Shown here: piece after piece, positions 11,960-55,795 of the stretch
Position numbering within the stretch: the stretch's first letter is position 1
Layout: each line of letters opens with the position of its first letter
Made by a program: the position numbers and the translations under genes
Notes under the pieces: generated by a model
Seen by the model: only the letters and a program-made list of their open reading frames with translations
Databases searched by the model: none
Told to the model about the DNA's origin: nothing
IMG/VR virus record: IMGVR_UViG_3300048591_000242
Span: 32,001-96,000 of that record
Length of the DNA stretch: 64,000 bases
DNA from: a virus
Lineage: Duplodnaviria; Caudoviricetes
Strand: one strand, 5' to 3'

Positions 11960-13642
11960 CTATCCACCATACAAATATATCGACCCTGAATTAATAAGAG
12001 TGGGGTCTACGCCATATGCACCTACTGCTAATATACCTAAATCCGAAAACGCCACACTAGTACCGAAATAATCATTAGCTAAGCCATTGGGAGAAGTGTG
12101 TTTATAATACTCAACCCAGGCATTATCTACCAGGGCATATACAAATACTGCGCCATTATCTCTAGAGGCGCTATCGTCTCCGTATGAACCTACAGCTAGT
12201 AGATTACCGTCATGTGCCATAGATACGGAATACCCATAGGCACAGCCACTAGTATTGCTATTAGAGAATAGCTTAACATCTAAAAGCCAATTAGTGTTTT
12301 CATAGTGATAAACATATACTGCACCAGTGTCTTTTTTAGTACTAGAGTTTTTATAAGAACCTATAGCTAGTCTAGTGCCGTCTCCAGATAATGAAACACT
12401 AACTCCATAATGATCATTTCTCTTACCGTCTAAAGGACTAAGTAATATGCCATCCCAGCTAGTGCCATTATAGCTAAATACAAAACAGCCCCCGGATAAG
12501 GTGTTAGATCCATTCTGTTTACTCCAAGTAGAACCTATAGCCACCACCAATCCATCATCGGAGACAGATATAGAGTTACCAAAGCTTTCATTATTTAATG
12601 GTACAACAGGCGTCAGTGTAGCTGAGTTAACATAACTACTACCATTTCTTTTATACACGGTAACTAACCCAGAGCTCACTCCAGATACTAATCCTAATCT
12701 TGAAGAAGTTAAAATGGTGTTACCGGTAAAATCAGCAGCCACTGAGTATCCGAACTCCACATTGGAGGCGGATATTCGTGTATCTATATGATTCCAGCTC
12801 CCTTGAGAGTACTCGTATACATACAGACCACACTCAGTATCACCTACTGCGCCTACTGCAATAATACTACCGTTTCCAGATATAGCTACAGCAAATCCAA
12901 ATCGCTTATTAGCACCAGGGCTATTACCGTATAACGTTGTGTCTAATGCCCAACCAGCAGCATTTCTTTTGTAGATATGTACCTGACCTGAGTTTACCCC
13001 ATGAAAGTCTGCATCGTCTGCCCCTACAACCACCGTAGAGCCATCGTCAGAGATATCTAGGGCGTAACCTATAGTAGAGGTACCCCCTAGAGTATCTGCC
13101 TTCAGAGACTCTATAAGGGCCTCTGGTAGGCCGCTAGCTGAAGAGAAACCCGAGGCAGGACTCCATTCGGATTCATCACCATAATGACTCTTATACCTAA
13201 CTCTTACATATATACCTGAGTTACTAGGCATCTGTGCCATGTAAGTACTTAGATCTATGGTGGTTAAGTCGCCTATCCATCCAGTATCCAAAATAGGAGT
13301 TACAAAGGCTAAATTATCTGCTACTTGCCAACGACTACTTAAATGTATTACCCCATCTATCCTACCGTCCGTATACATAAACGAGGTAGAGGTAACTATA
13401 GGTACTGCCTCTATATTAAAGGCTCCGTCTATGGGAAATAGAATGGATGGGGTATGTACCTGTGACGCTATAGGTTTAGCAACCGGTATACCGCCTACAG
13501 TAGTGCCGTCCGATATACGCATAATGGGCTTAGGACCACGCATGTCCAGTATAGGTTCTCCTACAGCCCCTACGTAATCCTCTATTGCATTACTGTTAAA
13601 TCTCTTCCACAGCCACGGCATTTTTAATCTAAACACACCCAT
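11960..13642 (-). CDS. Putative fibre/adhesin: anchor + Fn3-like + FG-GAP beta-propeller (560 aa)
   Basis: WLWKRFNSNAIEDYVG...RISDGTTVGG; SRWQVAD Fn3-like module; FG-GAP blades. Confidence 0.75.
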   Translation of the reverse strand: MGVFRLKMPWLWKRFNSNAIEDYVGAVGEPILDMRGPKPIMRISDGTTVGGIPVAKPIASQVHTPSILFPIDGAFNIEAVPIVTSTSFMYTDGRIDGVIHLSSRWQVADNLAFVTPILDTGWIGDLTTIDLSTYMAQMPSNSGIYVRVRYKSHYGDESEWSPASGFSSASGLPEALIESLKADTLGGTSTIGYALDISDDGSTVVVGADDADFHGVNSGQVHIYKRNAAGWALDTTLYGNSPGANKRFGFAVAISGNGSIIAVGAVGDTECGLYVYEYSQGSWNHIDTRISASNVEFGYSVAADFTGNTILTSSRLGLVSGVSSGLVTVYKRNGSSYVNSATLTPVVPLNNESFGNSISVSDDGLVVAIGSTWSKQNGSNTLSGGCFVFSYNGTSWDGILLSPLDGKRNDHYGVSVSLSGDGTRLAIGSYKNSSTKKDTGAVYVYHYENTNWLLDVKLFSNSNTSGCAYGYSVSMAHDGNLLAVGSYGDDSASRDNGAVFVYALVDNAWVEYYKHTSPNGLANDYFGTSVAFSDLGILAVGAYGVDPTLINSGSIYLYGG

Positions 13643-13663
13643 AATACCACCAGTATATAAAGG

Positions 13664-15340
13664 TTAACCAAATAAATGAGCAGAACCAGAGTTAGCTCCA
13701 TAGGTAGAATTACCAGGGGCACCCGCTATTACCTTAGCTCCGTTATCGGAACAAGCTACTACCCTACCTAACATGTAACCTGAACTATTACCTACTAAAG
13801 ATATCTTACTCTGCTCTATCCACCCTGACTGAGTTTCCATAAATACATAGACTGCTCCACTGCCGTCAGCAGACTGACTGCCCACGAACAACAAACTACC
13901 GTCTTCCGATAAAGCCACATTGGTACCAAATTCAAAATAGTAACTATTGTCAGAAGCAGTAAGTTTCTGTATCTGCATCCAGGTACCATTTATCTTTCTA
14001 AAGATGTATACGCCACCAGAATCCAATGCACTGCTGTCTGCGTAATTAGCCCCTATGGCTATAGTAGAGCCGTCTCTGGATATGTTTACACCTATACCAA
14101 AGGTAGAGTAGCTACTATAATCAATGGCCGTTAGTTTTTGTAGATATACCCAGTTATTACCATTATGCTCAAATACATAAGCAGAACCTGCATTAAACTC
14201 CAAACTATTATCTAAGTGAGAGCTTACTACTATAGTAGAACCGCTATCGTCTATAGATACCTCGTCTCCAAATCTATAACCGGCTGCGCCATCTGGTGCA
14301 CTGAGTATAGCTACTTGGGTGAATACGTTATTTACATAGTCATATACATAAGCCCGGCCTACATCAACTTCGGTAGCAGTATCTTTCCAACCTGCTCCTA
14401 TGACTAACGTATTACCGGAATTACCTAAGTATACACCTACACCAAAATAATCATAATTTAACATACCGGAAACAGAGATAACCTGCTTCTCTACCCAAGA
14501 ACCTAATTCTAGATCGTAAATGTATACAACCCCATCTCCTATAGCACTAGAATCTACCAGAGGAGCCCCTATGGCTAATCTAGTGCCATTTCTGGACAAA
14601 GCTATCGAGTATCCAAAGTAGCTACCGTCTACTATACCTACCGGCTGGATCATACTGCTGTTAGACCACACTCCATTGTCATTGGTATATACGTAAACTA
14701 CCCCTAAACCGCCATAGCCGCCCACAGCAACTGTATTACCATCGCCACTTATAGCTACTGCTCTACCAAAATAATCACCACTGGTAGGTGAGTTCTTAGT
14801 AAAGGTATTGGTAAGTACAGAAGGTATAGCACGTATAGTTCTAAAGCTTACCGGTACAGACCAGTCAGAAGCATCTGCGGTATTAGCTACATACCTAACT
14901 CTAGCATAGTAGACAGTATCTCCATTTAACACTAGTCCTATACTTAATAAATCTATACTTAATAGATTTACTGTGTCTGCTCCACTGGAGTAAAGTATAT
15001 ATTTAAAGTCTATGTCTGTAGCTAGCTCCCAAACAGACGCGTAATGAGTAGTAGCGTTGCCTTTGTTATTACCTACAAAGACACTACTTTGAATTACTGG
15101 AGTAATGGAAATATTAATAGCTCCTTGTGCAGGTGAGATTATTTCCGGAGTAAGTACTTTACCCACTCTACCTTCACTAATGATTCTGCCGCCTGGCTTA
15201 ACACCATTCATGAGGCGAATGTAGGGCTTCCCTTCCCTAAAATCAATAACGGACTCAGCAAAATCACCGGTATCCGTGTTTTCTTGTGCTGGATCAAATA
15301 TTCTCCAAGTAACAGGATTGGTAATATACTTAGTACCCAT
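13664..15340 (-). CDS. Putative fibre/adhesin: anchor + Fn3-like + FG-GAP beta-propeller (558 aa)
   Basis: More divergent anchor (RLMNGVKPGG), Fn3-like module, FG-GAP blades. Confidence 0.75.
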   Translation of the reverse strand: MGTKYITNPVTWRIFDPAQENTDTGDFAESVIDFREGKPYIRLMNGVKPGGRIISEGRVGKVLTPEIISPAQGAINISITPVIQSSVFVGNNKGNATTHYASVWELATDIDFKYILYSSGADTVNLLSIDLLSIGLVLNGDTVYYARVRYVANTADASDWSVPVSFRTIRAIPSVLTNTFTKNSPTSGDYFGRAVAISGDGNTVAVGGYGGLGVVYVYTNDNGVWSNSSMIQPVGIVDGSYFGYSIALSRNGTRLAIGAPLVDSSAIGDGVVYIYDLELGSWVEKQVISVSGMLNYDYFGVGVYLGNSGNTLVIGAGWKDTATEVDVGRAYVYDYVNNVFTQVAILSAPDGAAGYRFGDEVSIDDSGSTIVVSSHLDNSLEFNAGSAYVFEHNGNNWVYLQKLTAIDYSSYSTFGIGVNISRDGSTIAIGANYADSSALDSGGVYIFRKINGTWMQIQKLTASDNSYYFEFGTNVALSEDGSLLFVGSQSADGSGAVYVFMETQSGWIEQSKISLVGNSSGYMLGRVVACSDNGAKVIAGAPGNSTYGANSGSAHLFG

Positions 15341-15362
15341 TGCAGATTTCCTTTATTAGAAA

Positions 15363-17048
15363 TTATTCAAAAATATAAGCAGAACCTGAGGATAGACCAG
15401 CATCATCGTCTGCTTGCGCACCGGCTATCAGCAGAGATGCATCGCTCGCTATAGAAACAGAACCACCAAATTGATCTTGCTCAAAAATATCAGTAGAAAC
15501 TATTCTGGTTTGTACCCAGTTACCACCTGTATATACAAACAAGTAAACTGCTCCAGAGTTTGTACCATTACCGCCATTAGATAAAGAGCCTATGGCTAGG
15601 GTGTTGCCGTCTGCCGATATAGATATACTTCTACCGAACTGATCTCCAGCCGCATGGTCGTTAGGCATCAACTTAGTTTCATCCCAAGTAGTACCATTCC
15701 AGTCGTATATGTAAACGGCCCCTGAATTAGCTCCAACCGGATCTGCTGCATAGGCACCCACTGCGATTCTGGTACCATCAGCATTGACGGCTAACGCGTG
15801 TCCGAATTGATCGTTGGCTAAACCATCAGATGGATCTATGCGTGTAACTGGCCATCCACTACCATTCCACTTCATTACATAAATAAAACCAGCCTCATGG
15901 CCGGTAGCACTAGATACAACAGTATCGCCATCCTCAGAAACAACTGAGGCCCTACCTAGCGACCAATTATATCCTGGATATGTACCATGTACACCAGGTA
16001 TCACTATATCAGTTCTGGCCCACCCAGTACCATTCCAGCGGTAAATACGACACTTACCCATGCGATAGTTGAATCCGGCGACAGAATAATCATATCCTGG
16101 GTCGCCCACTACCCGTACCTCTCCGTTGCCTGATAAAGCCACAGACGATCCAAGGCTAGTGAACGGAGTTTCACCGGTAGTTAAGAACAATTCTTCTACC
16201 CAACTACTACCATTCCAAGTAAATACATATACTCTACGATTGTACTGATTAGCACCAAACTGACCAGGTGCACCTATGATTATCTTGTTGCCATCGGATG
16301 AAACATCTATAGCTTTACCGAATTGAGATTGGTTAGATCGTGATGCTGGTCTAAGAATGGTTTCTACCCAACTACTGCCATTCCATTTATAAATGTACGC
16401 TGTGCCTGCACTGCTGTTTTCGTTGTAGGCACCAACCACTACCGTACTTTTGTCATCCGATATTACTACAACGTTACCGTATACATCAGAGGCGGCTCCA
16501 TCAGAAGCAGTCAACTTAAATAACTGAGTATCTGGTAAAACTATACCGGTGGTAAAACTCACTACTGGACTCCATTCGGACTCTAGGTCATCTATGGAGT
16601 AGTGTTTTACTCTAACAAAATGCTCAATGGCTTCAACTAGTACCTGTGGTACTGTACTTAAGTCAATAGACTCTTTGTTAGTAGTAGCTTCTCCTGAGTC
16701 ATAAACCAGAGTAGTGAACAATGCATCTGTAGCTATTTGCCATCTAGTAGCTACGTGCCGGTTATTGGTAATGTTAGTGGCCGCATAAGGACTACCGGTA
16801 ATTACTGGAGAAGCACTAATACCTACGCTATCATCCAAAGGGGATACGATAGTAGGTGTATCTATAGCGGTTAAAACATCACCACCTAATGGTTTGCCAC
16901 CAGGGGTAGCCCCATCCATAATACGTACTTTTACCTTACCGTTTTTAGTATACAGTACAGGCTCACGAGGATCACCTAATTCAGAAAACATACTGTCGTC
17001 GTTAAAAGCTCTAAGACTAACAGGGCTAGTTATTTGCTTAACAGTCAT
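15363..17048 (-). CDS. Putative fibre/adhesin: anchor + Fn3-like + FG-GAP beta-propeller (561 aa)
   Basis: RIMDGATPGG anchor, TRWQIATD Fn3-like module, FG-GAP blades. Confidence 0.75.
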   Translation of the reverse strand: MTVKQITSPVSLRAFNDDSMFSELGDPREPVLYTKNGKVKVRIMDGATPGGKPLGGDVLTAIDTPTIVSPLDDSVGISASPVITGSPYAATNITNNRHVATRWQIATDALFTTLVYDSGEATTNKESIDLSTVPQVLVEAIEHFVRVKHYSIDDLESEWSPVVSFTTGIVLPDTQLFKLTASDGAASDVYGNVVVISDDKSTVVVGAYNENSSAGTAYIYKWNGSSWVETILRPASRSNQSQFGKAIDVSSDGNKIIIGAPGQFGANQYNRRVYVFTWNGSSWVEELFLTTGETPFTSLGSSVALSGNGEVRVVGDPGYDYSVAGFNYRMGKCRIYRWNGTGWARTDIVIPGVHGTYPGYNWSLGRASVVSEDGDTVVSSATGHEAGFIYVMKWNGSGWPVTRIDPSDGLANDQFGHALAVNADGTRIAVGAYAADPVGANSGAVYIYDWNGTTWDETKLMPNDHAAGDQFGRSISISADGNTLAIGSLSNGGNGTNSGAVYLFVYTGGNWVQTRIVSTDIFEQDQFGGSVSIASDASLLIAGAQADDDAGLSSGSAYIFE

Positions 17049-17068
17049 TTGCGTTTACCTTTTGTAAA

Positions 17069-18733
17069 TTATGAAAAAATGTAAGGAGTATATCCATCTA
17101 ACGTAAGTGTGTTAGATAACAACGTGCTTCCATCTGAAGATAGCTGCATAGCTATGCCAAATCTATCTTCCTGTGTGTTCCCTATAATGGATAGTCTGGA
17201 ATCCTCAGCCCACTGACCAGTCTCAGTGCTAAATAACTGTACCTCCTGAGCCTGCCTTATACCGGCTATAGATTCCCCTAAATCAGTAGCTATGGCTATT
17301 AAAGTACCGCCACTATTAATACTGAGTCTGTAACCGAAACCAGCACTTGCGTATGGAGTGGTGGAAATTATCTGTCTCGTGACTGGCCATGTATTACCGT
17401 CACGGGTATGTATGTAAACAGTACCTGCGCTAGTTACAGTAACGTATGTATCATGGGCGCCAATTGCCAGTACATTACCGTCAGCAGACAAATCTACGGC
17501 TCTACCGAAACGTACGCCAGCAGTGGCCCCAGACAACATTTGTCGCTGTACCCAACCTGCGCCTCCTGAGGTATAAACATATACTGCCCCAGCAAACGAG
17601 GCTCTCTGATGTGCCCCTACAGCTACTACATTTCCGTCTTCAGACAAAGCTATAGTTCCACCGGCATATCCAGAACCCTGCGGTGTGTCCGCTGGAATGA
17701 CTCTACTAGTCTCAACCCAAGTACCACCCACAAAACGATACAGATATACAGATCCACAAGTTAATCCATTGTAGACTGCACTAGGGGCACCCGCCGCTAA
17801 TACGCTTCCATCCTTGGATACTGCTACTACATAACCAAATGCCTTATACTCACCGCCGTCTGTATTAGTCAATATCTGACTTTCTATGTAGTCACCACTA
17901 CCGTCTAGGTTAAATACAAAAGCCACTCCCTGTGCATTAGAGCTATCTCCTACTACTAAAACATTACCACTCTCACTTAAAGCTACCGATATACCGAAGT
18001 TATCACTAGCCGTGACAACAGAAGGTAAAACCTTCTGGTTATACATCCAGGTATTCCCTACCTTCTTAAAGATATATACGCCACTCTCTGCAGTGCCGCC
18101 TATGCGTGTGGCACCTATGGCAGCTATAGTACCATTTCCGTTTATAGCCACACTTCTACCGTAGTTTAAATCTGTTAAATCCACACCCGGCAACAGACTA
18201 GTAATTTGTGTATCCGGTATAGCTGCCCTGGTTACAAAGCTAATTATGTTACTCCATTCAGAAACGGTTTCTGAAGAAGAGGTATGTAATACTCTAGTGT
18301 AGTATCTGGTACTAGGTAACAGCGATAGCGGTATAGTACTTAGATCTAAATTAGTTAGATTGTTTACATCGTTACCACTATCATAAACTGGACTAGAAAA
18401 CAGCGGACTAGTATCTATTTGCCATCTACTAGAGGCATGTACTATGTTGTTACTATCGGTAGAGTTATATGCGCTAGAAGAAATAACTGGAGACAGATCT
18501 ATACCAAGACTATCGTTTAACGGAGAGGTAATACTTGGCTTCTTTACTGATAATAACAAACCACCACCGATAGGTAAACCACCGGGTGTTACTCCGTCAC
18601 TTATACGCAATCTAAGGCCACCGCCCCTGGCATCTATAATAGGTTCTCTGGCAATGCCAACTACAGAGAATAGACTGTCGGTGTCATCAAACGACTGCCA
18701 CAAGACAGGTTCTGGTATATATCTGGTATTCAT
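17069..18733 (-). CDS. Putative fibre/adhesin: anchor + Fn3-like + FG-GAP beta-propeller (554 aa)
   Basis: RISDGVTPGG anchor, SRWQIDT Fn3-like module, FG-GAP blades. Confidence 0.75.
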   Translation of the reverse strand: MNTRYIPEPVLWQSFDDTDSLFSVVGIAREPIIDARGGGLRLRISDGVTPGGLPIGGGLLLSVKKPSITSPLNDSLGIDLSPVISSSAYNSTDSNNIVHASSRWQIDTSPLFSSPVYDSGNDVNNLTNLDLSTIPLSLLPSTRYYTRVLHTSSSETVSEWSNIISFVTRAAIPDTQITSLLPGVDLTDLNYGRSVAINGNGTIAAIGATRIGGTAESGVYIFKKVGNTWMYNQKVLPSVVTASDNFGISVALSESGNVLVVGDSSNAQGVAFVFNLDGSGDYIESQILTNTDGGEYKAFGYVVAVSKDGSVLAAGAPSAVYNGLTCGSVYLYRFVGGTWVETSRVIPADTPQGSGYAGGTIALSEDGNVVAVGAHQRASFAGAVYVYTSGGAGWVQRQMLSGATAGVRFGRAVDLSADGNVLAIGAHDTYVTVTSAGTVYIHTRDGNTWPVTRQIISTTPYASAGFGYRLSINSGGTLIAIATDLGESIAGIRQAQEVQLFSTETGQWAEDSRLSIIGNTQEDRFGIAMQLSSDGSTLLSNTLTLDGYTPYIFS

Positions 18734-29726: not shown

Positions 29727-30554
29727 ATGAAACAGTATTTAGATTTATTAAGTGAGCTACAGAGTGCAGTAATAAAAGACAACCGAACTGGTATTTCTGC
29801 TGCCTCCAAGTTCTTTCACACCATGGAATTTGACATAGCTAAGAATGGTTTCCCTGCGGTTACTACTAAGAAGTTAGCTATAAAGGCGGTAGTTGGTGAA
29901 TGCTTAGGCTTCTTAAGGGCTTCTTCAAATAGCGCTGAGTTTGAGGCCTTGAAATGTAAGGTTTGGACAGACAATGCCAACAACCACAACCTGAACCCAG
30001 ATGGCAGTATTAAAAGCCGTAATCCATGGCTATCTAATCCATTCAGAAAAGGAGAAAACGATTTGGGTAGAGTCTACGGTGTACAGTGGCGAGACTGGGA
30101 CCACACCACCTATCTATCTAAAGCTGACCTGGAAAGAATGGGTAAGGATATAGCTGGGGGCATTGAAATAGTAACTAGCTTAGGCTATGAGAACTATGGT
30201 TTTTTAGCCGACAAGCAACTTTACGTATTTCGTAAGAAAGTAGATCAAGTTAAGTGGGCTTTAGAAGAGTTGGTTAAGAATCCTTTAAACAGAAGAATTT
30301 TAATTACTGGATGGAACCCTGGGGACTTGGATAAAATGTGCCTACCGCCATGTCATTTATTGCAGCACTGGCAGTGTATGCCTATGTCCATTGACGATCG
30401 TATTAATTACGGTATTGAAAACATAGGTGAGTTGTTTACCCTACCCAGGTTCAACTCCAGAGTAGAGAAAGAGGAAAAAGAAGCAGAGTTATCTAAAGTC
30501 TGTGATTTACACGGTATTCCTAAGTATACCTTAAATCTGATGATGTACCAGCGT
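29727..30554 (+). CDS. thyA: Thymidylate synthase, exon 1
   Basis: DNRTG, TTKKL, LGRVYGVQWR, RRI..GWNP, LPPCH, ends at YQR. Confidence 0.92.
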
Positions 30555-30869
30555 TGAATGTGAGCGCCCTCTAGTCGTGAGGCTAGTTGAATAATTCTTC
30601 CTAAAACGGGAAACTCTCATAGGAGACAATCCGTTGCTAAATTTATGTAAGATAGATATTTACATAATAAATGCCCAGAGGCCATCGAAAGCACCTACGG
30701 ATTAAAATAGGTGATGAGTAGAGTAGGCTCCAAGTGGAGTCGAAACGGAAGAGAGTCTTTAAGGATAAAGACTGTGATATGGTCCAACTCTATAGTGATA
30801 TAGAGCAGCTACTATTTACCTAGAATAGTGGCGGGGTTGTGCTAACGACACAATTTGAAAGTCCGATTG
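30555..30869 (+). ncRNA. Group I self-splicing intron in thyA, 315 nt, no homing endonuclease ORF
   Basis: Splits YQR|SAD; exon 1 ends in U and the intron ends in G; IGS GCGC pairs with exon GCGU; P3 UUCUUCC/GGAAGAG, P4 AACGGG/UCCGUU, P7 GGCCA/UGGUC, GNRA-capped P2 and P9. Confidence 0.9.
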
Positions 30870-31184
30870 TCAGCGGACACAGTTTTAGGCATACCTTTTA
30901 ATATAGCCTCCTATGCTACTTTTATGCAAATCTTCTGTCGTATTACCGGACATGCTCCTGGTAAGTTTCACTATGTTACTGGCGATACCCACATTTACGG
31001 TAATCACACCGAAGCGGTAAAGGAACAGTTAGCTCGTATGCCCTATGAGAATAGGGTTGAGCTAAAGATAGCTGAGCACTTAGTATCCCTGGAAGACTTT
31101 GAAAGAGCTACACCAGATGACTTTGAGTTGGTTAATTATATTTCTCATGGTAAGCTGCAAAACGAAACAGTAATGGTTATTTAA
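30870..31184 (+). CDS. thyA: Thymidylate synthase, exon 2 (spliced product 380 aa)
   Basis: SADTVLGIPFNIASY and GDTHIYGNH motifs. Confidence 0.92.
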   Translation, partial: SADTVLGIPFNIASYATFMQIFCRITGHAPGKFHYVTGDTHIYGNHTEAVKEQLARMPYENRVELKIAEHLVSLEDFERATPDDFELVNYISHGKLQNETVMVI

Positions 31185-31228
31185 TAAACAGCTTTGGCAA
31201 CTTACATCTATCCCTATGTACCGTATAT

Positions 31229-31266
31229 GGGTGTGAGTTGTCAAAGACTCACCCTTTTTTTATTTT
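31229..31266 (+). terminator. Intrinsic terminator after thyA
   Basis: GGGTGTGAGT...ACTCACCC followed by a T-tract. Confidence 0.6.
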
Positions 31267-31321
31267 TTAATAAATCAGTAAGCTACCAGTATCACTATTA
31301 AAATATTTAGGAGAATGTATT

Positions 31322-31858
31322 TTGAATTTTTCAATTATAGCTGCTTTAGCCTCGGAAAACGTAATAGGCATGGACGGTGGTATGCCTTGGTTTCTTCCGG
31401 GTGACCTTAGATATTTTAAGGAGACTACTAGTAATAGCATTGTGATTATGGGTAGAAAGACATTTGAGTCTATAGGTAAGCCCTTACCTAACAGAAAGAA
31501 CATCATTGTATCTAGAAAGCTACATAAAGGAGACTTAGGGGAAGGTGTAATTATAGCCGATTCCTTACAATCTGCTTTAGTAGAGGCTTCCACTGTATTA
31601 CGCAATACAGAGAATGGATATAAAGATGAGGTCTTTATAATGGGAGGTGGTGAAATCTATAACCAAGCCATTACACTGCCTACGGTAACCAAGCTATACA
31701 TTACTATGGTAGATGCTGTGGTGGACGGAGATACATTTTTCCCAACTATTACCAGTGAGTGGGCCATGGATATGGATTCTATAGTTAAGCCAGATAAGTT
31801 AGAGAGAGACTCTCATGACTATCTGTTCTTAACCTATAATCGCAAGGAGCATAAATAA
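31322..31858 (+). CDS. folA: Dihydrofolate reductase
   Basis: VIG.DG.MPW.LP.DL.YFKETT, IMGRKTFESIGKPLPNRKNI, FIMGGGEIY, GDTFFP. Confidence 0.95.
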   Translation: MNFSIIAALASENVIGMDGGMPWFLPGDLRYFKETTSNSIVIMGRKTFESIGKPLPNRKNIIVSRKLHKGDLGEGVIIADSLQSALVEASTVLRNTENGYKDEVFIMGGGEIYNQAITLPTVTKLYITMVDAVVDGDTFFPTITSEWAMDMDSIVKPDKLERDSHDYLFLTYNRKEHK

Positions 31859-31901
31859 TACGTTTAACGTAATTTTGTTTTTGATTTAAAGAGGGAGTAA
31901 C

Positions 31902-33278
31902 ATGACTAACCGTGACATTTTAAAGGGAATAAGCCCTGTAGTTGTAAAGGCCATGAAAGATGTACAGCCGCGTATGATGTTAAAGGCATCCACTGTACCA
32001 GATTCACGTGCCATTATCGCTACATTAATGTATGATGCCGAGGGTATGGTTCAGGTGTTAACACCTAAAGGCTATATGCTTGACATAGAGGCGATAGAAG
32101 AGAGTACTGGTAGGAAACTACGGGCGGTGTCGAGGAGTGAAGTGGAGAGAATTTTAGGGTCGCATGGAATATCTACTATACCGGGTATCCCTGGTGTTTT
32201 TGGTATCACTACATTAGTGGATTTTCAGGTAGCAGCTATGCGCATAGTCTGTGTAGAGTCTGGTTACACTGGAAAGATGATTGGTTTTGATGGACATAAG
32301 TATCTACGGTTAATTGAGAACCTAACCGAAGGTGGTTACTCTATGCCCTTAGATGAAATAGAGCCTATAAATCCAAGGGGTGCATCCGATGAAATAAACG
32401 ATGCGGTGTCTCGTTTGACGGGTAATCAGGTTAAGGCTACGTTAGAAGATACTTTGGATATACCACCGCTACCTGAGTCGGCTAGAAAGCTACTTAAGCT
32501 TAGTTCTGACCCAGAGGCAGGTGTAGTAGATTTGTGCTCTATTGTAGAGTTAGATCCTAGTCTATCTGCGCAGTTAATTAGCTGGGCATCGTCCTCTTTC
32601 TATTCGGCTCCAGGTAAAGTAAAGTCACTACAGGACGCTATCTCTAGGGTATTGGGCTATGACATAGCTATGAACCTGTCTATAGGCTTGTCCATGGAAA
32701 AGGTACTGAATGTACCGGAAGAGCATCCAGATAACAAATCACCATACTGGCACCAGGCTATTTGGACAGCCGCTGCTATGTCGGTAGTAGTTAAGCTAAT
32801 ACCACCAGCACATAGACCTAGCCCAGGTATGGCTTATTTAGCTGGACTATTGCATAACTTCGGTAGTCTCATAATGGCACATGTATTTCCGAACCAATAC
32901 TCCATGGTTTGTAGATTAATAGAAGCTAACCCTCACATAGAGCACTCTGTGCTAGAAGGATATATTCTAGATCTAACCAGAGAGCAATTGGGTAGTACTT
33001 TGTTGGAGATCTGGGCTATGCCTGAGGACATAACTAATGCGATACGTTATCAGAGATGCCCCAATCAATTAACTGCCGGTAATGCCATGGCTAAGTTACT
33101 ATACGTAACCAAGGCTGTTTTACATGAATATGGCGCAGTTGTGGATACGCACGTAACCATACCTGAGTCTTATTATGAAGACCTCAGACTAGATCCAATG
33201 TCGGTACAGGAAGCCATTGAAAATATGGTTGAGTCTGGGGAAGAAATAAAGAATATGATTGAGGCCATGTCACAATAA
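31902..33278 (+). CDS. YbaK/aminoacyl-tRNA-deacylase-like + HDOD domain protein (SadB-like architecture, 458 aa)
   Basis: HDOD motifs IPPLP, DPSLSAQLISWASS.FY..PG, AYLAGLLHNFG, LLEIWAMP; N-terminal ~150 aa resembles a degenerate YbaK fold. Confidence 0.8.
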   Translation: MTNRDILKGISPVVVKAMKDVQPRMMLKASTVPDSRAIIATLMYDAEGMVQVLTPKGYMLDIEAIEESTGRKLRAVSRSEVERILGSHGISTIPGIPGVFGITTLVDFQVAAMRIVCVESGYTGKMIGFDGHKYLRLIENLTEGGYSMPLDEIEPINPRGASDEINDAVSRLTGNQVKATLEDTLDIPPLPESARKLLKLSSDPEAGVVDLCSIVELDPSLSAQLISWASSSFYSAPGKVKSLQDAISRVLGYDIAMNLSIGLSMEKVLNVPEEHPDNKSPYWHQAIWTAAAMSVVVKLIPPAHRPSPGMAYLAGLLHNFGSLIMAHVFPNQYSMVCRLIEANPHIEHSVLEGYILDLTREQLGSTLLEIWAMPEDITNAIRYQRCPNQLTAGNAMAKLLYVTKAVLHEYGAVVDTHVTIPESYYEDLRLDPMSVQEAIENMVESGEEIKNMIEAMSQ

Positions 33279-33340
33279 GAACGTGTGCAGGGGCTTTATG
33301 TCCCTGCATCAAACAACCACAACTATAAGGAATACCTGTA

Positions 33341-34030
33341 ATGTTAGAATTAAGACCACTACAAAGCCAAGAGGAGCTAGATATAGCCCTTTCTGAGAAT
33401 AGGGTACACCTAGTATGGACTAACGTTTATATAGCCGGAGAGAGGCACTGTGTGGTCTCTGTGGACGACCACTACCATAGCAGCGGCGGTGGGTTTGGAG
33501 ATAATAAATATTACGCATACCCTGCAAACGTAGACGGGGCTAGAACAGACTTTAACGAGTACTGTGAATTTGGTGGACATGTCCTATGTTGGGGTATAAA
33601 AACAGAGATGATAAATACCCACAAAACTAAGTGGGGCAGTACTAGAATAGACAGGCGTTATGAAACATACATTACATTAAATGGCGAAGAGTTTTTGCTA
33701 GTTAGTGGTAGTATGGAATATGCCTTACCTAAGGCGCAACAACTTATAATTGAGTTGTCTGAGGGTATTATAGACTTTACTAAGGTTAATTGGAAGACCG
33801 ACCTAATAGGCATGAAGGTCTACTACAGGGATCAACCTGCTATTATTACAGCAGTGGGTAGTGATCTGAATTTAACCATGGCACCAGACGGTATAAATCA
33901 ATTTAATATGCCTGCCTGGATGGCAGAGGAGTCAGATAACGACGACGGTATGGATGTAAGTGATTGGGATGGTAGTGAGGCCGTAGTTAGTTACTTTAGT
34001 GACAACATTACCTGGTTTAGAAATAAATAA
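33341..34030 (+). CDS. Hypothetical phage protein (229 aa)
   Basis: Full ORF with AAGGA RBS. Confidence 0.6.
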   Translation: MLELRPLQSQEELDIALSENRVHLVWTNVYIAGERHCVVSVDDHYHSSGGGFGDNKYYAYPANVDGARTDFNEYCEFGGHVLCWGIKTEMINTHKTKWGSTRIDRRYETYITLNGEEFLLVSGSMEYALPKAQQLIIELSEGIIDFTKVNWKTDLIGMKVYYRDQPAIITAVGSDLNLTMAPDGINQFNMPAWMAEESDNDDGMDVSDWDGSEAVVSYFSDNITWFRNK

Positions 34031-34087
34031 CCTGGGTGTGGGGTAACTACCCCATAGCTCTATAAATAGGCGTTGGGGTGGTTAGAT

Positions 34088-34468
34088 ATGAAATATGCAT
34101 TAATAGTGGTGATAGTTTTAGCTGCTTTATCTGGTGGTTTAAATAAATATCTTTATGATGAGATTGCTAGGCTAAATGCTAATGTAGCTGAAGTAAAACA
34201 GGCTAACAAAATCTATACAGTACAAATAGCTGAGCTAAAGGCTGCTGTGGCTTCAGAGAACGAGAAGTTTAACACTCTGTATGTAAAGCAGTTAAAGATG
34301 GGGGTAGACTTAGAAAACACAAAGTCTAAACTAGCTGAGTACAAGCATAGAGAAACGGTAGTACTTAGAAAACCAGGTTTAGTGCAAATAAAAGCTAATA
34401 AAGCTACCAAACAACTGTTTAATGAAATTAGCTGCGTTACTGGGGATTGTCCTAAGGAGGAGAAATGA
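34088..34468 (+). CDS. Putative i-spanin (Rz-like)
   Basis: N-terminal TM helix, long coiled coil, C-terminal Cys pair; ATGA overlap with a lipoprotein gene. Confidence 0.7.
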   Translation: MKYALIVVIVLAALSGGLNKYLYDEIARLNANVAEVKQANKIYTVQIAELKAAVASENEKFNTLYVKQLKMGVDLENTKSKLAEYKHRETVVLRKPGLVQIKANKATKQLFNEISCVTGDCPKEEK

Positions 34469-34815
34469 AAATTCTATTAATAATGTCAATATTGTTTTTG
34501 ACAGCTTGCTCCTCTATGAAAGTACAGCCACCCATTGTAGTAGCAGAAACTATAGAGGTAGAAAAATACCACCCTCCGTTTCCTAAACCTATGGTTACAG
34601 CAGACATAGAGTTTGTGGTACTTACTTCTGATACTGTTCAGAAACTACGACCCGATTATGTTTATATGGGTCTTAGCTGGGAAGACTATTTAACATTCGC
34701 CAGATACATGCAGGATATAAAACACAAGCTATCTGAATACGTAAACCTGGTTTGTTATTATCGAGATCCAGGTGATGATGAATTATGTGTTAAGTCTTCA
34801 GAGACATTACCCTAA
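34465..34815 (+). CDS. Putative o-spanin lipoprotein (Rz1-like)
   Basis: Signal peptide with lipobox LTAC; Pro-rich stretch, then helical region with Cys residues. Confidence 0.7.
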   Translation: MKILLIMSILFLTACSSMKVQPPIVVAETIEVEKYHPPFPKPMVTADIEFVVLTSDTVQKLRPDYVYMGLSWEDYLTFARYMQDIKHKLSEYVNLVCYYRDPGDDELCVKSSETLP

Positions 34816-34823
34816 CAGTTGCC

Positions 34824-34862
34824 CTACAGACATCCTTAACGGGGTGTCTGTAGCGTATGCTG
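34824..34862 (+). terminator. Hairpin + TATGCTG element after the spanin pair
   Basis: CTACAGACATCCT-TAAC-GGGGTGTCTGTAG-CG-TATGCTG, then a T-rich run. Confidence 0.6.
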
Positions 34863-34873
34863 TATTTTTAAAA

Positions 34874-34883
34874 TATATATTAC
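34874..34883 (+). promoter_or_regulatory. Early promoter motif TATATATTAC
   Basis: Same AAATATATATTACC context as 28211-28224; intergenic. Confidence 0.7.
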
Positions 34884-34913
34884 CATAACAGACAAGACTT
34901 GTAGGAGAGTGTT

Positions 34914-35312
34914 ATGGTAGCAAATATAGGTATAAACGTACACATAGGTAAGTTCAAAAAGGCTATAGCAGATAAGGTATTAGATTATAAAGACGCTATT
35001 TATTTAGGCTTTATAGATATTCTAGTATGTACATACTCTGAAGAATCCATGAAAGAAATACCAGTATATCCCTTGGATAGAAGTCATAGTCCGTTAGCTG
35101 TTTTACTGGACATTGAGTTAGAGGCATTAAACGCAGGTATGGCCCCTAGAATGGCTAAGAACGTAAGTTCTCTATTTAGGCTATTTATGGACTCCTGTAC
35201 CGAGTCTCCTCCTAGGACAGTGAGTTATAGTTGTACTAGAGGCAGCGACGGTACATTACTTATTTATACCAAACTAAATGGAATCTACGTTTCTTTTAAA
35301 TTCTCATATTAA
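34914..35312 (+). CDS. Hypothetical protein (132 aa)
   Basis: AGGAG RBS; downstream of an early promoter. Confidence 0.65.
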   Translation: MVANIGINVHIGKFKKAIADKVLDYKDAIYLGFIDILVCTYSEESMKEIPVYPLDRSHSPLAVLLDIELEALNAGMAPRMAKNVSSLFRLFMDSCTESPPRTVSYSCTRGSDGTLLIYTKLNGIYVSFKFSY

Positions 35313-35328
35313 CCACAGGGGTATTTGT

Positions 35329-35721
35329 ATGTCTAGGGCGGTGCTTAAGGTAATTATGCGTGAACTAAAGGAGAACATCATAAAAGGAGAAGAGGCAAAG
35401 GAAAAGGAATATCTTTTAAATGAAATAGATCTGTGGCTTTCCACTATAACTGAAGATAACCTTAACAAAGAATTAAATAGTAAGGTTCGTTATATAAAGG
35501 ATATATCCAACCTTACCACCACCATAAAAACCGAATTTGAATCTGTCGATATAGACAAGGATGTGGCTGATAAAGCTTCCTGGTATGTAGATCAGTTATT
35601 AACCTTAATGCTATTGCATGCGGACGTTATCGGCTACAGCATAGTCAGTAGTATCAGATATAAGTCGGTTACGTTACGTATACTTACCGATAAATTCGTT
35701 GTAGTGCTTAGGTTTATCTAG
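35329..35721 (+). CDS. Hypothetical protein (130 aa)
   Basis: ATG 35329 behind AGGGG; helical. Confidence 0.6.
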   Translation: MSRAVLKVIMRELKENIIKGEEAKEKEYLLNEIDLWLSTITEDNLNKELNSKVRYIKDISNLTTTIKTEFESVDIDKDVADKASWYVDQLLTLMLLHADVIGYSIVSSIRYKSVTLRILTDKFVVVLRFI

Positions 35722-35791
35722 TATGAGGGAAGGGTCAAAAATAACAAACTTTGGTTATAGTTTGCTACATTAATCGTTAAGAGGAGGTTAA

Positions 35792-36028
35792 GTGAAATCA
35801 CTAATCGGGTTCTCTAAAAAGATATTGTCCAATCATGTATGGACAGTTTTTTTAATATCTTTAGTTTTATTTATCTACAGCGCTATCACTACGATAGCGG
35901 CGGTAACTATGTACTCTAAACTGGATGCACTTAGCTTAGAGAAGGAGAACATAGTCTCTTTAAAAGAGGAATTAGAGGTATGTTACAACAACGAATACAG
36001 TAAACTTCTAACCACATTAAAAGAATAA
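35792..36028 (+). CDS. Small membrane protein, possible second i-spanin (78 aa)
   Basis: GAGGAGG RBS; one TM helix followed by a short coiled coil. Confidence 0.5.
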   Translation: MKSLIGFSKKILSNHVWTVFLISLVLFIYSAITTIAAVTMYSKLDALSLEKENIVSLKEELEVCYNNEYSKLLTTLKE

Positions 36029-49520: not shown

Positions 49521-52500
49521 TTACTGATCGTAATTTAAAACCCCAGTAGTGTATTGGGTTTTACCCCAACTGTTACCGGGTCCTTGTTTGGATTTATTAG
49601 CTACGGGCTTAGTAGTTTTAGTTTCATTATTTTCTCCCTTAGAAACCTCTATTACCCTCTGTTCAGATATAGCCATTAGCAGAGCATCTAGCTTCTCAAT
49701 AACTACCTTTTGTCCAGCTATCTGAGTATTACGCTGCTCTCCTGCTTTATTAGCTAAAGCTTCTTGAGACTTAAGCATAGTACTTACCAGAACATCTGTC
49801 TTATCTGTAGCTACCGACAAAGAAGGCTTCTCCTTTGTCTCACTGGAGCTTAACTTAGCCAGCATGTCAGCTAACTCTACGGCGGCACCGGCCACCATAC
49901 GACGTCTACCAAACTCAGGGAAGACGTCTTCTGGACCACCCATGCCTCCTGCCTCATACTCTTCAAAGTCAGCAGATTCACGGATATTGTCTTTAGCCAC
50001 CATAGTAGCTACAGCAGAAGTACCCTTAACTTCAGGTATATCCATATCCTGCTTAGCTAATCCCTCTAAACGTTTATTTCTATCATTTAGCTCCTTTTGT
50101 AATGCAGTTTTAATGCTGGGTTCTACTGAGGCCAATGGGTCCATAGGTTTGTTGTCCTTACCTATGTGCTCAAAGCGCAGATGTGGTCCGGTACTATTAC
50201 CCGTACTACCTACATACCCTATAAGCTGTCCTTTAGTAACAGTACCGCCTACAGTAAGGTTATCATCAAAATCACTAAGATGGCCGTATCTAGTACTAGT
50301 GCCGTCTGGGTGCTCTATGTAAATTACCTTACCGGCAGTTTTGCTATTACCCTTACGTACTACCACACCCTCCATGGCAGAGACTACATCAGTGCCCATA
50401 GGGGCAGCTATGTCTATACCTGTGTGATTCCGTTTTGTTCCATCAAAAGGATCATCTCGCTCTCCAAATTCAGAAGTAAGCATACCTGTAGATAAAGGTA
50501 ACAAAATGTTTTCTTTATCGTTTATGTCCTTCTTGTTTAGATCGCTATATTGACCAGCATTACGGATAACGTTATCTAGTGATACATAGCTAGCTTCGTC
50601 CTTATAATCCTCCCCTATATCAGCAGAAGAACGCATTTTAGACTTAGCTAGACTAATATTACTTTTAGCTTTAGCAGAGGTCTCTACTGGTTTAGGTAAG
50701 ATAGACAATGGATCAAAGTCATCCAACTCCTTAGTTGTATCTAAGGAGGCTATTAAAGCTTTTACATATTCAGATATAAGCTCTACGTTACTTTCTATCT
50801 TAGTACCTTTCTTAGGAGAAGCTGTCCATCTATAAGGATCTACTCCTGTCTCTCTAATATCCTTTTCAGTAAACTGCACTGAAGTAATATACTTAAGCTT
50901 CATGGAATCATCTAACTCATCATCCACGTCATCTAAGTCTACACCGCTATCCATACCCTTAAGTACAGCTAGGTGTGTGAAGAACACAGGTACAAACCTT
51001 TTAGTAAACCAGGTACCCCATTGTACAGCGTCTGCCTCATTATCCAGAAACATACCAAAATCTTCAGCATATTCCTTAAAGAACCAAGCTACATCTTCAT
51101 CCAATGAAGGTACATTACCACTCCAGCTAATTTCACTTAAAGCGCCGTCTTCTAATCTACGAATGCAATAGATTAACTCCTCATCATTAAGTTTAGCACC
51201 GTATTGTAAAAACCTAAGTCCCTCTAATGGCTCTACACTACTACCGTACGAAAGGTGCTTATACAGCTTATAGCCACCATAGGCTAATCCCCCTATAGCA
51301 GCAGCACCTAATACTAAAGGCAGTACACCTACTGAGGCTATTGCTCCTCCTACAGTAGCCGCTCCGCTACTAATAGCCGCTGTAGTAGCCGCTGTAGCCG
51401 TAGTGGCTGCCGTAGCTACACCGCTAGGTATGAGCATACCGGCCGCTCGTATAGCGGCACCACCGGCACCACCTAGCAGACCTAATGCTTTGCTGCCCCC
51501 GGACTTTAACATCCCGCCCAGTTTAGCTAACTTACCACCTTTAGTTTTAGGTTTGCCGTCTTTACCCATATCAGGTAAATCAGGGCCTCCGCCAAATATA
51601 CTACCTAAAGCCTTACCGCCTAAAAGCATAGCCACTAAATCACCTATTTTAGAAACAGCTCCACCTACCATACCGGCTACACCGGCTATAGCTTTGGTTA
51701 GGAAATCAAAAGGACTTTCCTTCTCTTTCTTTTCTTTAGTAGGCTTAGATTCAGCTTTAGCATCTGACGCAGCTTCCGCCTTTGCTTTACGCCTAGCCAG
51801 TATAGCTCTCCAACTATTATCTCTAAGCCCATCGTCGTCACTGTCCCCTGAGATCTTTCTTTTGGCTTCAGCTACGGTGTTGGTAGAGATAGTCTTAAGG
51901 GTCTCTAAGGATTCAGCCATATAGGCCTTTATGGAATACTTTTCAGTATCATCCTCATCCCTAGTATCTATCTCCCCAGTTCGAGTATAGCTATTTTGCT
52001 GCTGACTTTCCTCCTCTTCTATTCTACCACTGCGTTTACCCATGGGTATGGCGGTACCATCTGGAGTAACTACTATTGGATCAGATTCATTGTAGTCGTC
52101 ATAGTCGGTATTATCATTAGAGATGTGTTTATATATTCTATCTAAATAACCTACCTGTTTGTTTAGAATGGCGTTAGTTTCATCTAAACCTATAAACCCA
52201 GGTAACTTAAAATCAGACAGGCTATCTCGTACTGATCCCGCAGCATTAGCAAATAGATTCTTACCAGCAGACAGTTGCTCCAGTATCCATTCTTTAGCGT
52301 CTATACCGTCTGGTATTTTAAACTTACCGGATTCTATTAGTTTATTTATAGCCTCCGGATTCATCTGCTTTATGCGATCCATCATAGCGGTAGGGTCAAA
52401 GCTTGGGTTGTTTATGGTATTAGCCTTAATCATCTCTATTACCTGAGCATGATCTAAACCTTTAAATCTACCAGTAACGCCCTTAGCTACATCCATACCT

Positions 52501-55500
52501 CTGTCGTATACATCTCCTATTACTCTAGCCCCTGTCTTATAGGAAGACTTTACTAGATCTAAAGCTTTCCTTCCAGCGGATAGACCTAATCCAGATGCCT
52601 TCTTAAGGTAAGCCCCTATTAAGCCTCTGGCTCCTTTAGTCTCTATGGAAATGCCGAATCTATCCACCAATCCTCTGGTATACTCGGCCATAGACAGTAT
52701 CATGTTTCCATCTATATCAACAACGTCACCATCTATCTCATCCATAGTTAGAATAGGCTCCCCTGTCTTCTTAGAGAAATATCCGCCATTACGCATAATT
52801 ACTGCTTTTAACCTGGGTGTATCCTCACCGACTACATAAGCATCTCTTAGGGTATTTGCTCTTTTACGGATAAAGTCTAATACCTTTCCGGGTAACTTAG
52901 CTACTCCTTCTATTATGTTAGCCTGCATATTAAATGCGGCTTTAAAGGGGGCTACTATAGCTGAGAATATAGATCTGTCTTCCTTGGCAAGATAGTTCTT
53001 CATGGACTCGTGTATATTACCTAAAACAGAGCCTCCCATGGATAGACCGGTCTTAGTAATGTTAGCCATACCTTCATAGAAGTTTCCTACTAAGCTAACA
53101 AACTTACCTGCCCCAGATTTCAAACCAGAAACAAAGTTAGTGGGTTTAATAAAACCTTCTTTACCAGTAAGAGCATATACAGTGTTACCACCTGCAGCCG
53201 CGACCTGTTCTAGAAGCACATGGTTTGTTTTGAAATTATCATTAATAGCATCTAGCAATAAATGAAAGTCAAAACTCTTACCTACTTCGTTCTCCGGTAA
53301 ATCCATAGTTACAGCTAACGCCCTAGAGCCGGAATCACCTATTCTCCATTTCTTATCCAACTCCTCTACTAGATCACCACGATGTTTGTCCAGTACCTTA
53401 GATATAGACTCTTCATCTATAGAAGCAGATACGTTAAAACTAGAAGGTAAGGATTCTCTATCCAGTGGCATTTTTGCCTGACTATCTACCACTGTTCTTG
53501 GAGCATAGTTGCTTCTGGTAAAAGACCGCATTGTGTCAGATACATTCGCTACTTCGTCTCTACCGGAGAAACGTTTAGCGATAAGTGCGTTATCTACCTT
53601 ATCTCCTTTCTCGGTGTTCGTGATTATACCTAGATTTCTAAGAATTTCCTTTTCGCCAGTACTATGGTATTTGGATAATGCACTAGTTAGCTCACCGGAG
53701 ATATCACCCAAAGACTTAAGCTTCTTATCTAGCTCTAAAATAGCACCGGCACTTAAATCTTTCTTACCAGACAATGCCGCATCTATTTCCTTAGCATCCT
53801 CATCCTTTATGCTTTTGTCTAAACTATCCAGCTTAAACATATCCATCTTAAAGCGATCTGCTCGCTCACCACTTATAAGAAGTTGATCTATAAGGGACTC
53901 GGTAGCAGACTCACTTAGTTTGGTATCACCTAAGATATTACCGGCTAACTCTCTGGCCTCTTCCCTGCGCTTAGTAATCTTCTCTGAATCAAATACCTTT
54001 CTACCCACAATGTCAGAAGCATCATTTAAACCTATGAAACTTTCCGTGTCGGTAGAAAACACTAATCTATCGTTTTCTGTACCAGTAGCTATATTAGTTA
54101 CTTGCTGCAAAATACGTGATAGATATCCCGGAATAACCTCTATCCAGGTTCTACGCATAAGGTTATCCATACTACCAATCTGATCGGTAGCTGAACTACT
54201 TAACGTATTTAGTATCTTCTTCTGGTTATTTAACTCAGGCATTAGCTCACGTAAGGTTTGAAGAATCATACCGTCTTCATTCTTACTAGATTCAAAGCGC
54301 AAACCTTTCTTAGCTAGATCTTCACTGATTACTTCATTGCCAAACTCATCATAAAGAGCACCTTTTATATCAGAGGATTTCTTTATAACCGGACTATCTT
54401 CATCTGGGCCACTACGATAGCCGCCCTTACGTAATTCTTCTCCAGATAAAATTAATTCACCAGTTTCAGAATTATAAACATCCTTATTTGCAAATTTAGA
54501 GGCTAGCCTATTAGCTAACTCGATACCGGGTACAGAAGACAAGTCTATACCTATATCCTCTCCTCTACCAAACTCTGAAGCCAGTTGCGGTATGTTATTG
54601 ATAAGGTACTGTAACTGAGCCGAGCTTTCCATTAGCTTAGGATTAGCGCGTAGCTTCTCCCCTAGAATCGTAGCTAACTTACTAGCGCCTTTCCCTACAG
54701 CGGAATCAGCTAATAAACCACCGCCCATAGCTAACTTATCTATGCCCATCTCATCCATTTCTACGGACATACTGACGGCGTCAGCAGCACTACCCATAGC
54801 GTCATTTACAGTACTTACCCAGTCCTTTACCTTACCTTTGATGTTACCGGCTATCTTACCGCCAAACTTACTAAAGAATGTAGTGGCGCTTTCAGAAGCA
54901 GATCCCAATAACTGCTCAGTCATTATTCTGGCATAGTTCTCACTCATCTGAATCTTAAGTGGCTCAGGTAGAGCAGAGTTCTTAGTAATGGCATCCAACT
55001 GTTGTCTGGTTGTATCGGCTGAAGTTTTATTAAGAGACAGCATATCCTTAAGAATGAAATACTGTCTCATTTGTAAATCTAGACTCTTACGCTGATAGTT
55101 TTCTAGAATAGTATCCTGATATCCTACGAGCCTACTAATACCCTTAGATATGTTTTCTATACCACCTAATGACTCAGCGTGTCTTACATTTTCAAGTTCA
55201 GAGTCTTTAATGCTTTTTAGAATCTCAAATTCGTCTTTCTTACCCTCTACTTCCTCTCGCTTACCGAATACATCCATCATGGAAGCTTGTATAGAGGCTT
55301 CCACTGGATCTATGGTAGGGGCAGACTGTCCTTTATCTGCAAAATTCTTTAACTTATCAGAAGCCCACTTAGGTAAGACTTTATCTATAGTAGCTGACTT
55401 CTTGTTAATTATAGAACGCAATGCCTCGGCAGCAGGCTCTAACTCTTTCTTGGCGGAATCATATAAGTCGCTACCTACGGATAAGGCATTGTCCGCTATG

Positions 55501-55721: not shown

Positions 55722-55795
55722 ATAAAACACTCCTCTAAAACGCTATTGCATTTATAATACAAATGATTCCCCTAATGTTTCAATGGTTTCTTAGG

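Follow-up and report, generated by a model that had tools for sequence, protein, structure and literature searches.

A phage-encoded SadB-family protein of apparent marine Pseudomonadales origin, with relatives in further uncultured phiKZ-like phages

Small type IV pilus inhibitors of Pseudomonas phages alter motility and receptor display to block superinfection, and these phage-specific proteins act directly on the pilus machinery. Here we analysed a phage gene that would intervene further upstream. It lies in a stretch of 64,000 nucleotides, hereafter the window, which covers bases 32001-96000 of the 202,179-bp IMG/VR virus record IMGVR_UViG_3300048591_000242, a record with direct terminal repeats. 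An open reading frame (ORF) at 31902-33278 (+) of the window, stop codon included, encodes a 458-residue protein, P0001, related to the bacterial regulator SadB. In contrast to the pilus inhibitors, P0001 is a full-size captured host regulator and would act through proteolysis.

SadB of Pseudomonas aeruginosa has no known enzymatic activity, and its mechanism was worked out in 2025 (PMC12075610). It binds a conserved motif near the C-terminus of AmrZ (Q91, A94, L95) and triggers the degradation of AmrZ, mainly via Lon, even when SadB itself is barely detectable; both domains of SadB are required, and no ligand is needed (PMC12075610). When AmrZ is lost, Psl and diguanylate cyclases increase and the cell becomes committed to biofilm (PMC12075610). 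The current mechanism is adaptor-mediated, Lon-dependent proteolysis of AmrZ and not sensing of cyclic di-GMP (c-di-GMP) (PMC12075610), so that a c-di-GMP assay, as proposed in a sequence-only reading of the window, is not the most direct test. The same concept, delivery of a motility/biofilm master regulator to Lon, is found in Bacillus subtilis with SmiA, the Lon adaptor for SwrA (an analogy taken from PMC12075610), although SmiA is an unrelated protein whose likeness to SadB is functional only. SadB of Pseudomonas fluorescens F113, which shares family and architecture with P0001, binds c-di-GMP with a dissociation constant of 0.23 uM and represses flagellar synthesis upstream of FleQ (PMC6543031), whereas it is contested that the P. 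aeruginosa protein binds a ligand (PMC12075610).

By searching the PDB with phmmer, we found that residues 24-450 of P0001 match P. aeruginosa SadB (9qzk, E 5e-103) and that residues 12-458 match the Marinobacter protein 3mem (E 4e-102). An AlphaFold2 model of P0001, built from a 36-sequence alignment (predicted local distance difference test score, pLDDT, 88; predicted template modelling score 0.86), superposed on 9qzk_A ('SadB of Pseudomonas aeruginosa') with a template modelling (TM) score of 0.92 over 454 columns and on 3mem with a TM score of 0.91, with the same two-domain arrangement in both cases. The N-domain of the model reached target-normalised TM scores of 0.66-0.72 against ProX/YbaK structures, and the fold match to the HD-GYP protein Bd1817 had an E-value of 0.1 only. 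Compared with P. aeruginosa SadB (PA5346; PDB 9qzk; PMC12075610), P0001 has the same architecture, domain arrangement and degenerate HDOD site, a similar length and 36% identity, but it is phage-encoded, sits on a long branch, has lost three arginines and has an N-domain ~24% identical to the bacterial ones. In trees as well as in identity (38-43%), the bacterial proteins closest to it are Maqu_0641 of Marinobacter aquaeolei (PDB 3mem) and homologues from Oleiphilaceae, Alkalimarinus and Hahellaceae; they have the same fold but are chromosomal single-copy host genes. Together these data indicate that P0001 is a true SadB-family protein, in which a YbaK-like N-domain is packed on a non-catalytic HDOD domain. 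We regard this identity, along with the marine Pseudomonadales origin described below, as close to certain.

These results bear out most of what the sequence-only reading had said of the protein, namely that it is intact, carries an HDOD domain behind an N-terminal YbaK-like domain, resembles SadB and is encoded right after folA. The ORF is open throughout, with 458 uninterrupted codons from an ATG start. A Shine-Dalgarno-like AGAGGGAG stands at 31890-31897 (+), 4 nt before the ATG, and no rival ORF of at least 50 amino acids was found on the opposite strand inside the gene. The upstream ORF at 31322-31858 (+) encodes a dihydrofolate reductase (DHFR; Pfam DHFR_1, PF00186, E 9e-47). The HDOD domain (PF08668) occupies residues 187-385 (32460-33056, +), with an E-value of 6e-42 and 143.8 bits against a cut-off of 22.9. 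Within this domain, the HD dyad position reads HN, in an LLHNFG motif at residues 316-321 that aligns with the family-wide LLHNFG; L317, N319 and G321 are among the invariant alignment columns, and H318 is conserved in at least 90% of the sequences.

The YbaK-like part of the architecture holds with a qualification, because this domain shows at the fold level and not in the Pfam model. The N-domain (~residues 24-155; 31971-32366, +) aligns to that of SadB and is modelled with a pLDDT of 89-96, but the Pfam tRNA_edit family (PF04073), recorded for most bacterial homologues, did not reach E 0.1 in P0001. The sister copy, P0004, scored 19.6 bits against this family, with a cut-off of 25.5, and the N-domain lies below Pfam detection in every phage copy. 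Pfam HD (PF01966) was unmatched in P0001, and searching NCBIfam returned no model. PADLOC gave no family at E <= 0.01 for P0001 or for a copy from the second phage group described below, while PHROGs gave only a weak match of residues 29-146 to the unannotated phrog_30134. The inter-domain linker and first helix (32367-32459, +) have the lowest pLDDT of the model (64-75) and hold two of the substituted arginines, R176Q and R180T. Beyond the HDOD domain, C-terminal helices complete the SadB C-domain (residues 386-458; 33057-33275, +), aligning to 9qzk up to residue 450, with helices in the model at 395-457. Eight nucleotides past the stop codon, a 7-bp GC-rich hairpin (TGCAGGG ... CCCTGCA) lies at 33286-33308 (+); it has no T-run, and the terminator scan did not call it.

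The nearest protein to P0001 is P0004, with 48% identity, encoded on a 25-kb ENA contig (L003, also seen as L004; two ENA samples) that belongs to a sister phage. The genes for thymidylate synthase, DHFR, a 229-residue protein, a T4-type spanin and an RNase H-like protein are collinear between this contig and the window, at 36-62% identity. The sadB-like gene of the sister phage is located upstream of thyA and not after the DHFR gene, that is in the same gene block at another position. Scanning IMG/VR with P0001 alone gave no match; a profile scan of the same database gave six further loci. A second group of phages, group B (L005-L009, contigs up to 222 kb with a GC content of ~0.50, plus the Logan contig L012), carries a SadB-like gene of 448-478 codons that directly follows the large terminase gene in a neighbourhood of phiKZ-type virion genes (phrog_2, phrog_3430, phrog_3184 and PhiKZ_VTX). 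Homologues of these flanking virion genes are located elsewhere in the window phage. The slot between the large terminase gene and a phrog_2921-like gene is variable: it is filled by small unrelated minus-strand ORFs in the window phage (G000:C1:119270-120640) and by the sadB-like gene in group B (L005 7374-9382). In a third group, a 242-kb contig with a GC content of 0.395 (IMGVR_UViG_3300036762_000065; L010 7977-8867) encodes a 296-residue HDOD-only protein, with no YbaK-like domain, directly after an NAD-dependent DNA ligase gene.

Among 50,697 GenBank phage records searched by tblastn with P0001, the only matches were Pseudomonas phage YMC12/01/R24 (two accessions) and Microcystis phage MaAM05. 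The MaAM05 match is an HD-type gene, 'rny', whose product is 24% identical. We rejected YMC12/01/R24 as a case of phage-borne sadB: the gene lies in the last ~8 kb of a 46-kb Casadabanvirus record, beside genes for a LysR-type regulator, RecG, an HU protein and a rubredoxin reductase, and is host chromosome attached to a transposable Mu-like phage. The sadB ORF in this record (L002; MH643778.1 / NC_061432.1, ~38.4-46.1 kb) starts late and is 423 codons long, which suggests a possible disturbance at the 5' end. Among the viral structures of BFVD, none matched at E <= 0.001. Further IMG/VR scans, with the 229-residue neighbour and the RNase H-like protein as queries, sought relatives of the phage lacking the gene and gave no match. 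In the literature searched, HDOD was not paired with jumbo phages or phage-encoded proteins, nor was SadB named as a phage gene. The sequence-only reading had called the gene unfamiliar from lytic jumbo phages. This stands for the GenBank phages, where the single SadB match is an artefact, but SadB-like or HDOD genes are present, at differing loci, in no fewer than three groups of uncultured phiKZ-like phages. The protein family is known; its recurrent viral setting is new.

The gene belongs to the phage in composition and in context. Its GC content (0.433) and GC content at third codon positions (0.383) lie within about one standard deviation of those of the long ORFs of the phage (0.405 +/- 0.026 and 0.350 +/- 0.034, respectively), and each other phage copy likewise matches the composition of its own contig. 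Among the products encoded in the window are a phiKZ-type multisubunit RNA polymerase beta subunit (phrog_3148), whose identity to those of cultured jumbo phages does not exceed 38%, as well as virion proteins, tail fibres, an RNase H-like protein and a UvsX-like recombinase; megablast of positions 30000-36000 against GenBank phages gave no match. The SadB-like gene itself stands within a same-strand block at ~28.1-38.8 kb, closed by strong hairpin terminators. A JGI contig from an independent sample (L011) holds the last 131 codons of the gene at 97% identity, and the genes that come after it are the same as in the window. For this pair, the ratio of non-synonymous to synonymous substitution rates (dN/dS) was 0.13, from 10 synonymous and 5 non-synonymous differences, and it was 0.08-0.17 for divergent phage pairs, for which dS is saturated. 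All seven of the full-length phage copies (7/7) have an intact ORF. Together these data indicate that the SadB-like gene is kept under purifying selection in phages.

Relatives of P0001 are numerous in bacteria, with more than 1,000 proteins matching at E <= 1e-3 among 90% clusters, 348 at E <= 1e-30 among 50% representatives, and at least 546 loci in species-representative genomes. The best 80 of these at least 546 loci include Pseudomonas, Stutzerimonas, Cellvibrio, Marinobacter, Oleiphilaceae, Hahellaceae, Zooshikella, Spongiibacteraceae and Ketobacteraceae, and Alkalimarinus is named among the protein matches. By maximum-likelihood analysis, the window copy and the L003 copy (group A) formed a clade with a Shimodaira-Hasegawa-like approximate likelihood ratio test (SH-aLRT) support of 99-100. 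This phage clade lay within a starred clade (SH-aLRT 96-97) that comprised Hahella, Marinobacter, Oleiphilaceae and Alkalimarinus sequences, as sister (90-92) to an Oleiphilaceae/Alkalimarinus/Hahellaceae group. The trees thus support the proposal of the sequence-only reading that this is a captured host gene, nested as it is within marine Pseudomonadales SadB. They also go part of the way towards the donor that a phylogeny had been expected to reveal: they place it among marine Pseudomonadales, in the neighbourhood of Oleiphilaceae, Alkalimarinus and Hahellaceae, with capture by an ancestor of the window phage, but the donor genus cannot be named, because the highest bacterial identity to P0001 is only ~43%. 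Root-to-tip paths in the phage clade are ~3-5 times those of its bacterial neighbours. Since its capture, the gene has been kept, has adjusted to the base composition of the phage and has evolved at 3-5 times the rate seen in its bacterial relatives.

The copies of the other phages branch elsewhere. Group B is sister to Marinobacter (98), and the HDOD-only form of L010 falls in another place on a very long branch, its placement being unsure. These positions favour separate captures; an approximately unbiased test did not reject a single origin of groups A and B (p = 0.07). From the trees, SadB was probably captured by phages more than once.

We then compared the phage copies with bacterial SadB at 92 alignment columns, each at least 90% conserved in 34 bacterial sequences. 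P0001 kept 76 of the 92 conserved residues and the sister copy 81. Changes common to the two proteins are R176Q, R180T, R201S, I197L, L265M and changes at P331 and A453. Where the C-domain starts, the R-x-x-x-R spacing of R176 and R180 is conserved, and R201 lies just inside the HDOD part. In contrast to these two phages, the group-B copies keep all three arginines. The divergence is also uneven along the protein, P0001 being 24% identical to bacterial SadB in the N-domain and 43% in the C-domain; bacterial SadB shows a similar but milder gradient.

By analogy with P. aeruginosa SadB, P0001 could be an adaptor that hijacks host behaviour, a reading to which we give an almost even chance. The gene would probably be expressed together with the nucleotide-metabolism and recombination genes of its same-strand block, and P0001 would play, in the cytoplasm of the host, the part that SadB has in P. 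aeruginosa, without enzymatic activity. It would bind a short motif on a host regulator and pass this regulator to housekeeping proteases of the host, mainly Lon. Loss of the regulator would then flip the motile/sessile programme of the cell (flagella, pili, exopolysaccharide and c-di-GMP enzymes) without the surface signal of the host itself. The likely benefit for the phage would be control of receptor display, that is superinfection exclusion, or an infected cell held in a state favouring phage production. Such effects on motility, biofilm or receptor display, which the sequence-only reading had also suggested, are predicted from what the SadB family does in bacteria. Searches of the phage genome for Pfam SspB, Lon_C, Arc and Tubulin had no match. 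Since the phage encodes no Lon and no Arc/AmrZ protein, any activity of its SadB must use host partners. The same genome does encode a ClpP pair, which fits a phage interfering with host proteolysis but ties nothing to the SadB-like gene.

Several observations weigh against a direct transfer of the P. aeruginosa mechanism. No AmrZ orthologue was found in four SadB-carrying genomes (Hahellaceae, Oleiphilus, Marinobacter nauticus and Cellvibrio), one of them from the family that is sister to the phage copy, whereas the Pseudomonas control genome did contain AmrZ. The client of the phage SadB is probably not AmrZ itself. Moreover, the long branches, the R176Q, R180T and R201S substitutions and the changes at P331 and L265 suggest that specificity or regulation may differ from those of the bacterial protein. 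The N-domain, too, is only ~24% identical to the bacterial ones.

P0001 might instead be a SadB scaffold retargeted to a client whose importance is confined to infection, for example a host defence or stress protein or a phage protein needing a timed level, with no effect on motility or biofilm. We hold such a neofunctionalised adaptor to be rather unlikely. The phage branches 3-5 times longer than the bacterial ones, the derived changes that the two group-A phages share at positions at least 90% conserved (the three arginines included), an N-domain too diverged for Pfam in every phage copy and the proteolysis-related ClpP pair would all agree with it; however, group-B copies keep the arginines, the core HDOD surface motifs are retained, PADLOC shows no tie to known defence systems and there is no known candidate client. 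The loss of conserved linker and first-helix residues in a protein that retains its overall fold would also suit a decoy, or dominant-negative protein, which competes with host SadB for its client or protease without delivery and leaves the host frozen in its current state, for example planktonic. Very few copies of SadB suffice for its action (PMC12075610), so that its partners could be titrated by a phage paralogue present in abundance. We nevertheless judge a decoy to be distinctly improbable, and the purifying selection over the whole length and both domains fits an active adaptor equally well.

An enzymatic role, either as a YbaK/ProX-like aminoacyl-tRNA deacylase or as an HD/HD-GYP phosphohydrolase on nucleotides or c-di-GMP, could be read from the YbaK/ProX fold of the N-domain and from the place of the gene between DHFR/thymidylate synthase and RNase H/UvsX-type genes. 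This is very doubtful, though: the HD dyad is HN, as in SadB (LLHNFG), Pfam HD and tRNA_edit are both below threshold, and adjacency to the DHFR gene is not conserved, the L003 copy being elsewhere in the block. In addition, the pocket of SadB, itself a protein with no known enzymatic activity, has one histidine where the metal-binding HDOD structure 3HC1 has five histidines and one aspartate (PMC12075610). The idea that there is no functional phage gene here at all, but a chimeric assembly, host contamination or a decaying passenger, draws on the metagenomic nature of the record and on the sole GenBank 'phage' SadB match being flanking host DNA. It can practically be dismissed given a composition that fits the phage, neighbours to left and right that are phage genes, recovery of the gene in phage context from independent samples and from related phages, and intact ORFs with dN/dS far below 1.

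Returning to P0001 as an adaptor that hijacks host behaviour, a broader and more speculative version, which we put forward tentatively as somewhat unlikely, is that phiKZ-like phages of marine Gammaproteobacteria captured SadB-type protease adaptors at least twice, at different sites, as signal-independent switches destroying a host master regulator. The loss of the arginine pair in the window lineage would then uncouple the adaptor from the input that controls the bacterial protein. If true, regulated host proteolysis of the motile/sessile decision would be a recurrent target of phage takeover. SadB is a biofilm-commitment checkpoint in Pseudomonas, and a selected, recurring phage copy would be a natural case of a virus seizing this checkpoint. 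The phage copies also offer a handle on the role of SadB homologues outside Pseudomonas, where the four genomes checked gave no AmrZ. As natural variants with defined changes, they offer another on the surfaces that decide client choice.

Around the SadB-like gene, the DHFR of the window is 51% identical to that of the sister phage. The downstream neighbour at 33341-34030 (+) encodes the 229-residue protein, which had no match in Pfam, PHROGs or PADLOC; its orthologues in L003 and L011 are 45% and 95% identical, respectively. Further upstream, the thymidylate synthase gene at 29727-31184 (+) is split into ORFs of 276 and 109 codons by a group I intron at ~30545-30805 (Rfam Intron_gpI, 76 bits against a cut-off of 50), and the L003 gene is uninterrupted (370 codons). 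Elsewhere in the window, six tandem ORFs of ~555 codons each, at 361-3716 and 11960-18733 (-), lie on both sides of the gene for a 2181-residue protein. At 49521-55730 (-), a 2069-residue protein belongs in part to a tail-fibre family (phrog_3201) and, in a C-terminal region at ~residues 1744-1906, matches phage endolysin and metallo-endopeptidase families. Finally, a 285-residue protein encoded at 58861-59718 (+) matches two L003 ORFs (172 and 131 residues) several times and is thus internally repetitive, and repeats related to it are also present in group-B phage loci (L005 12626-13819).

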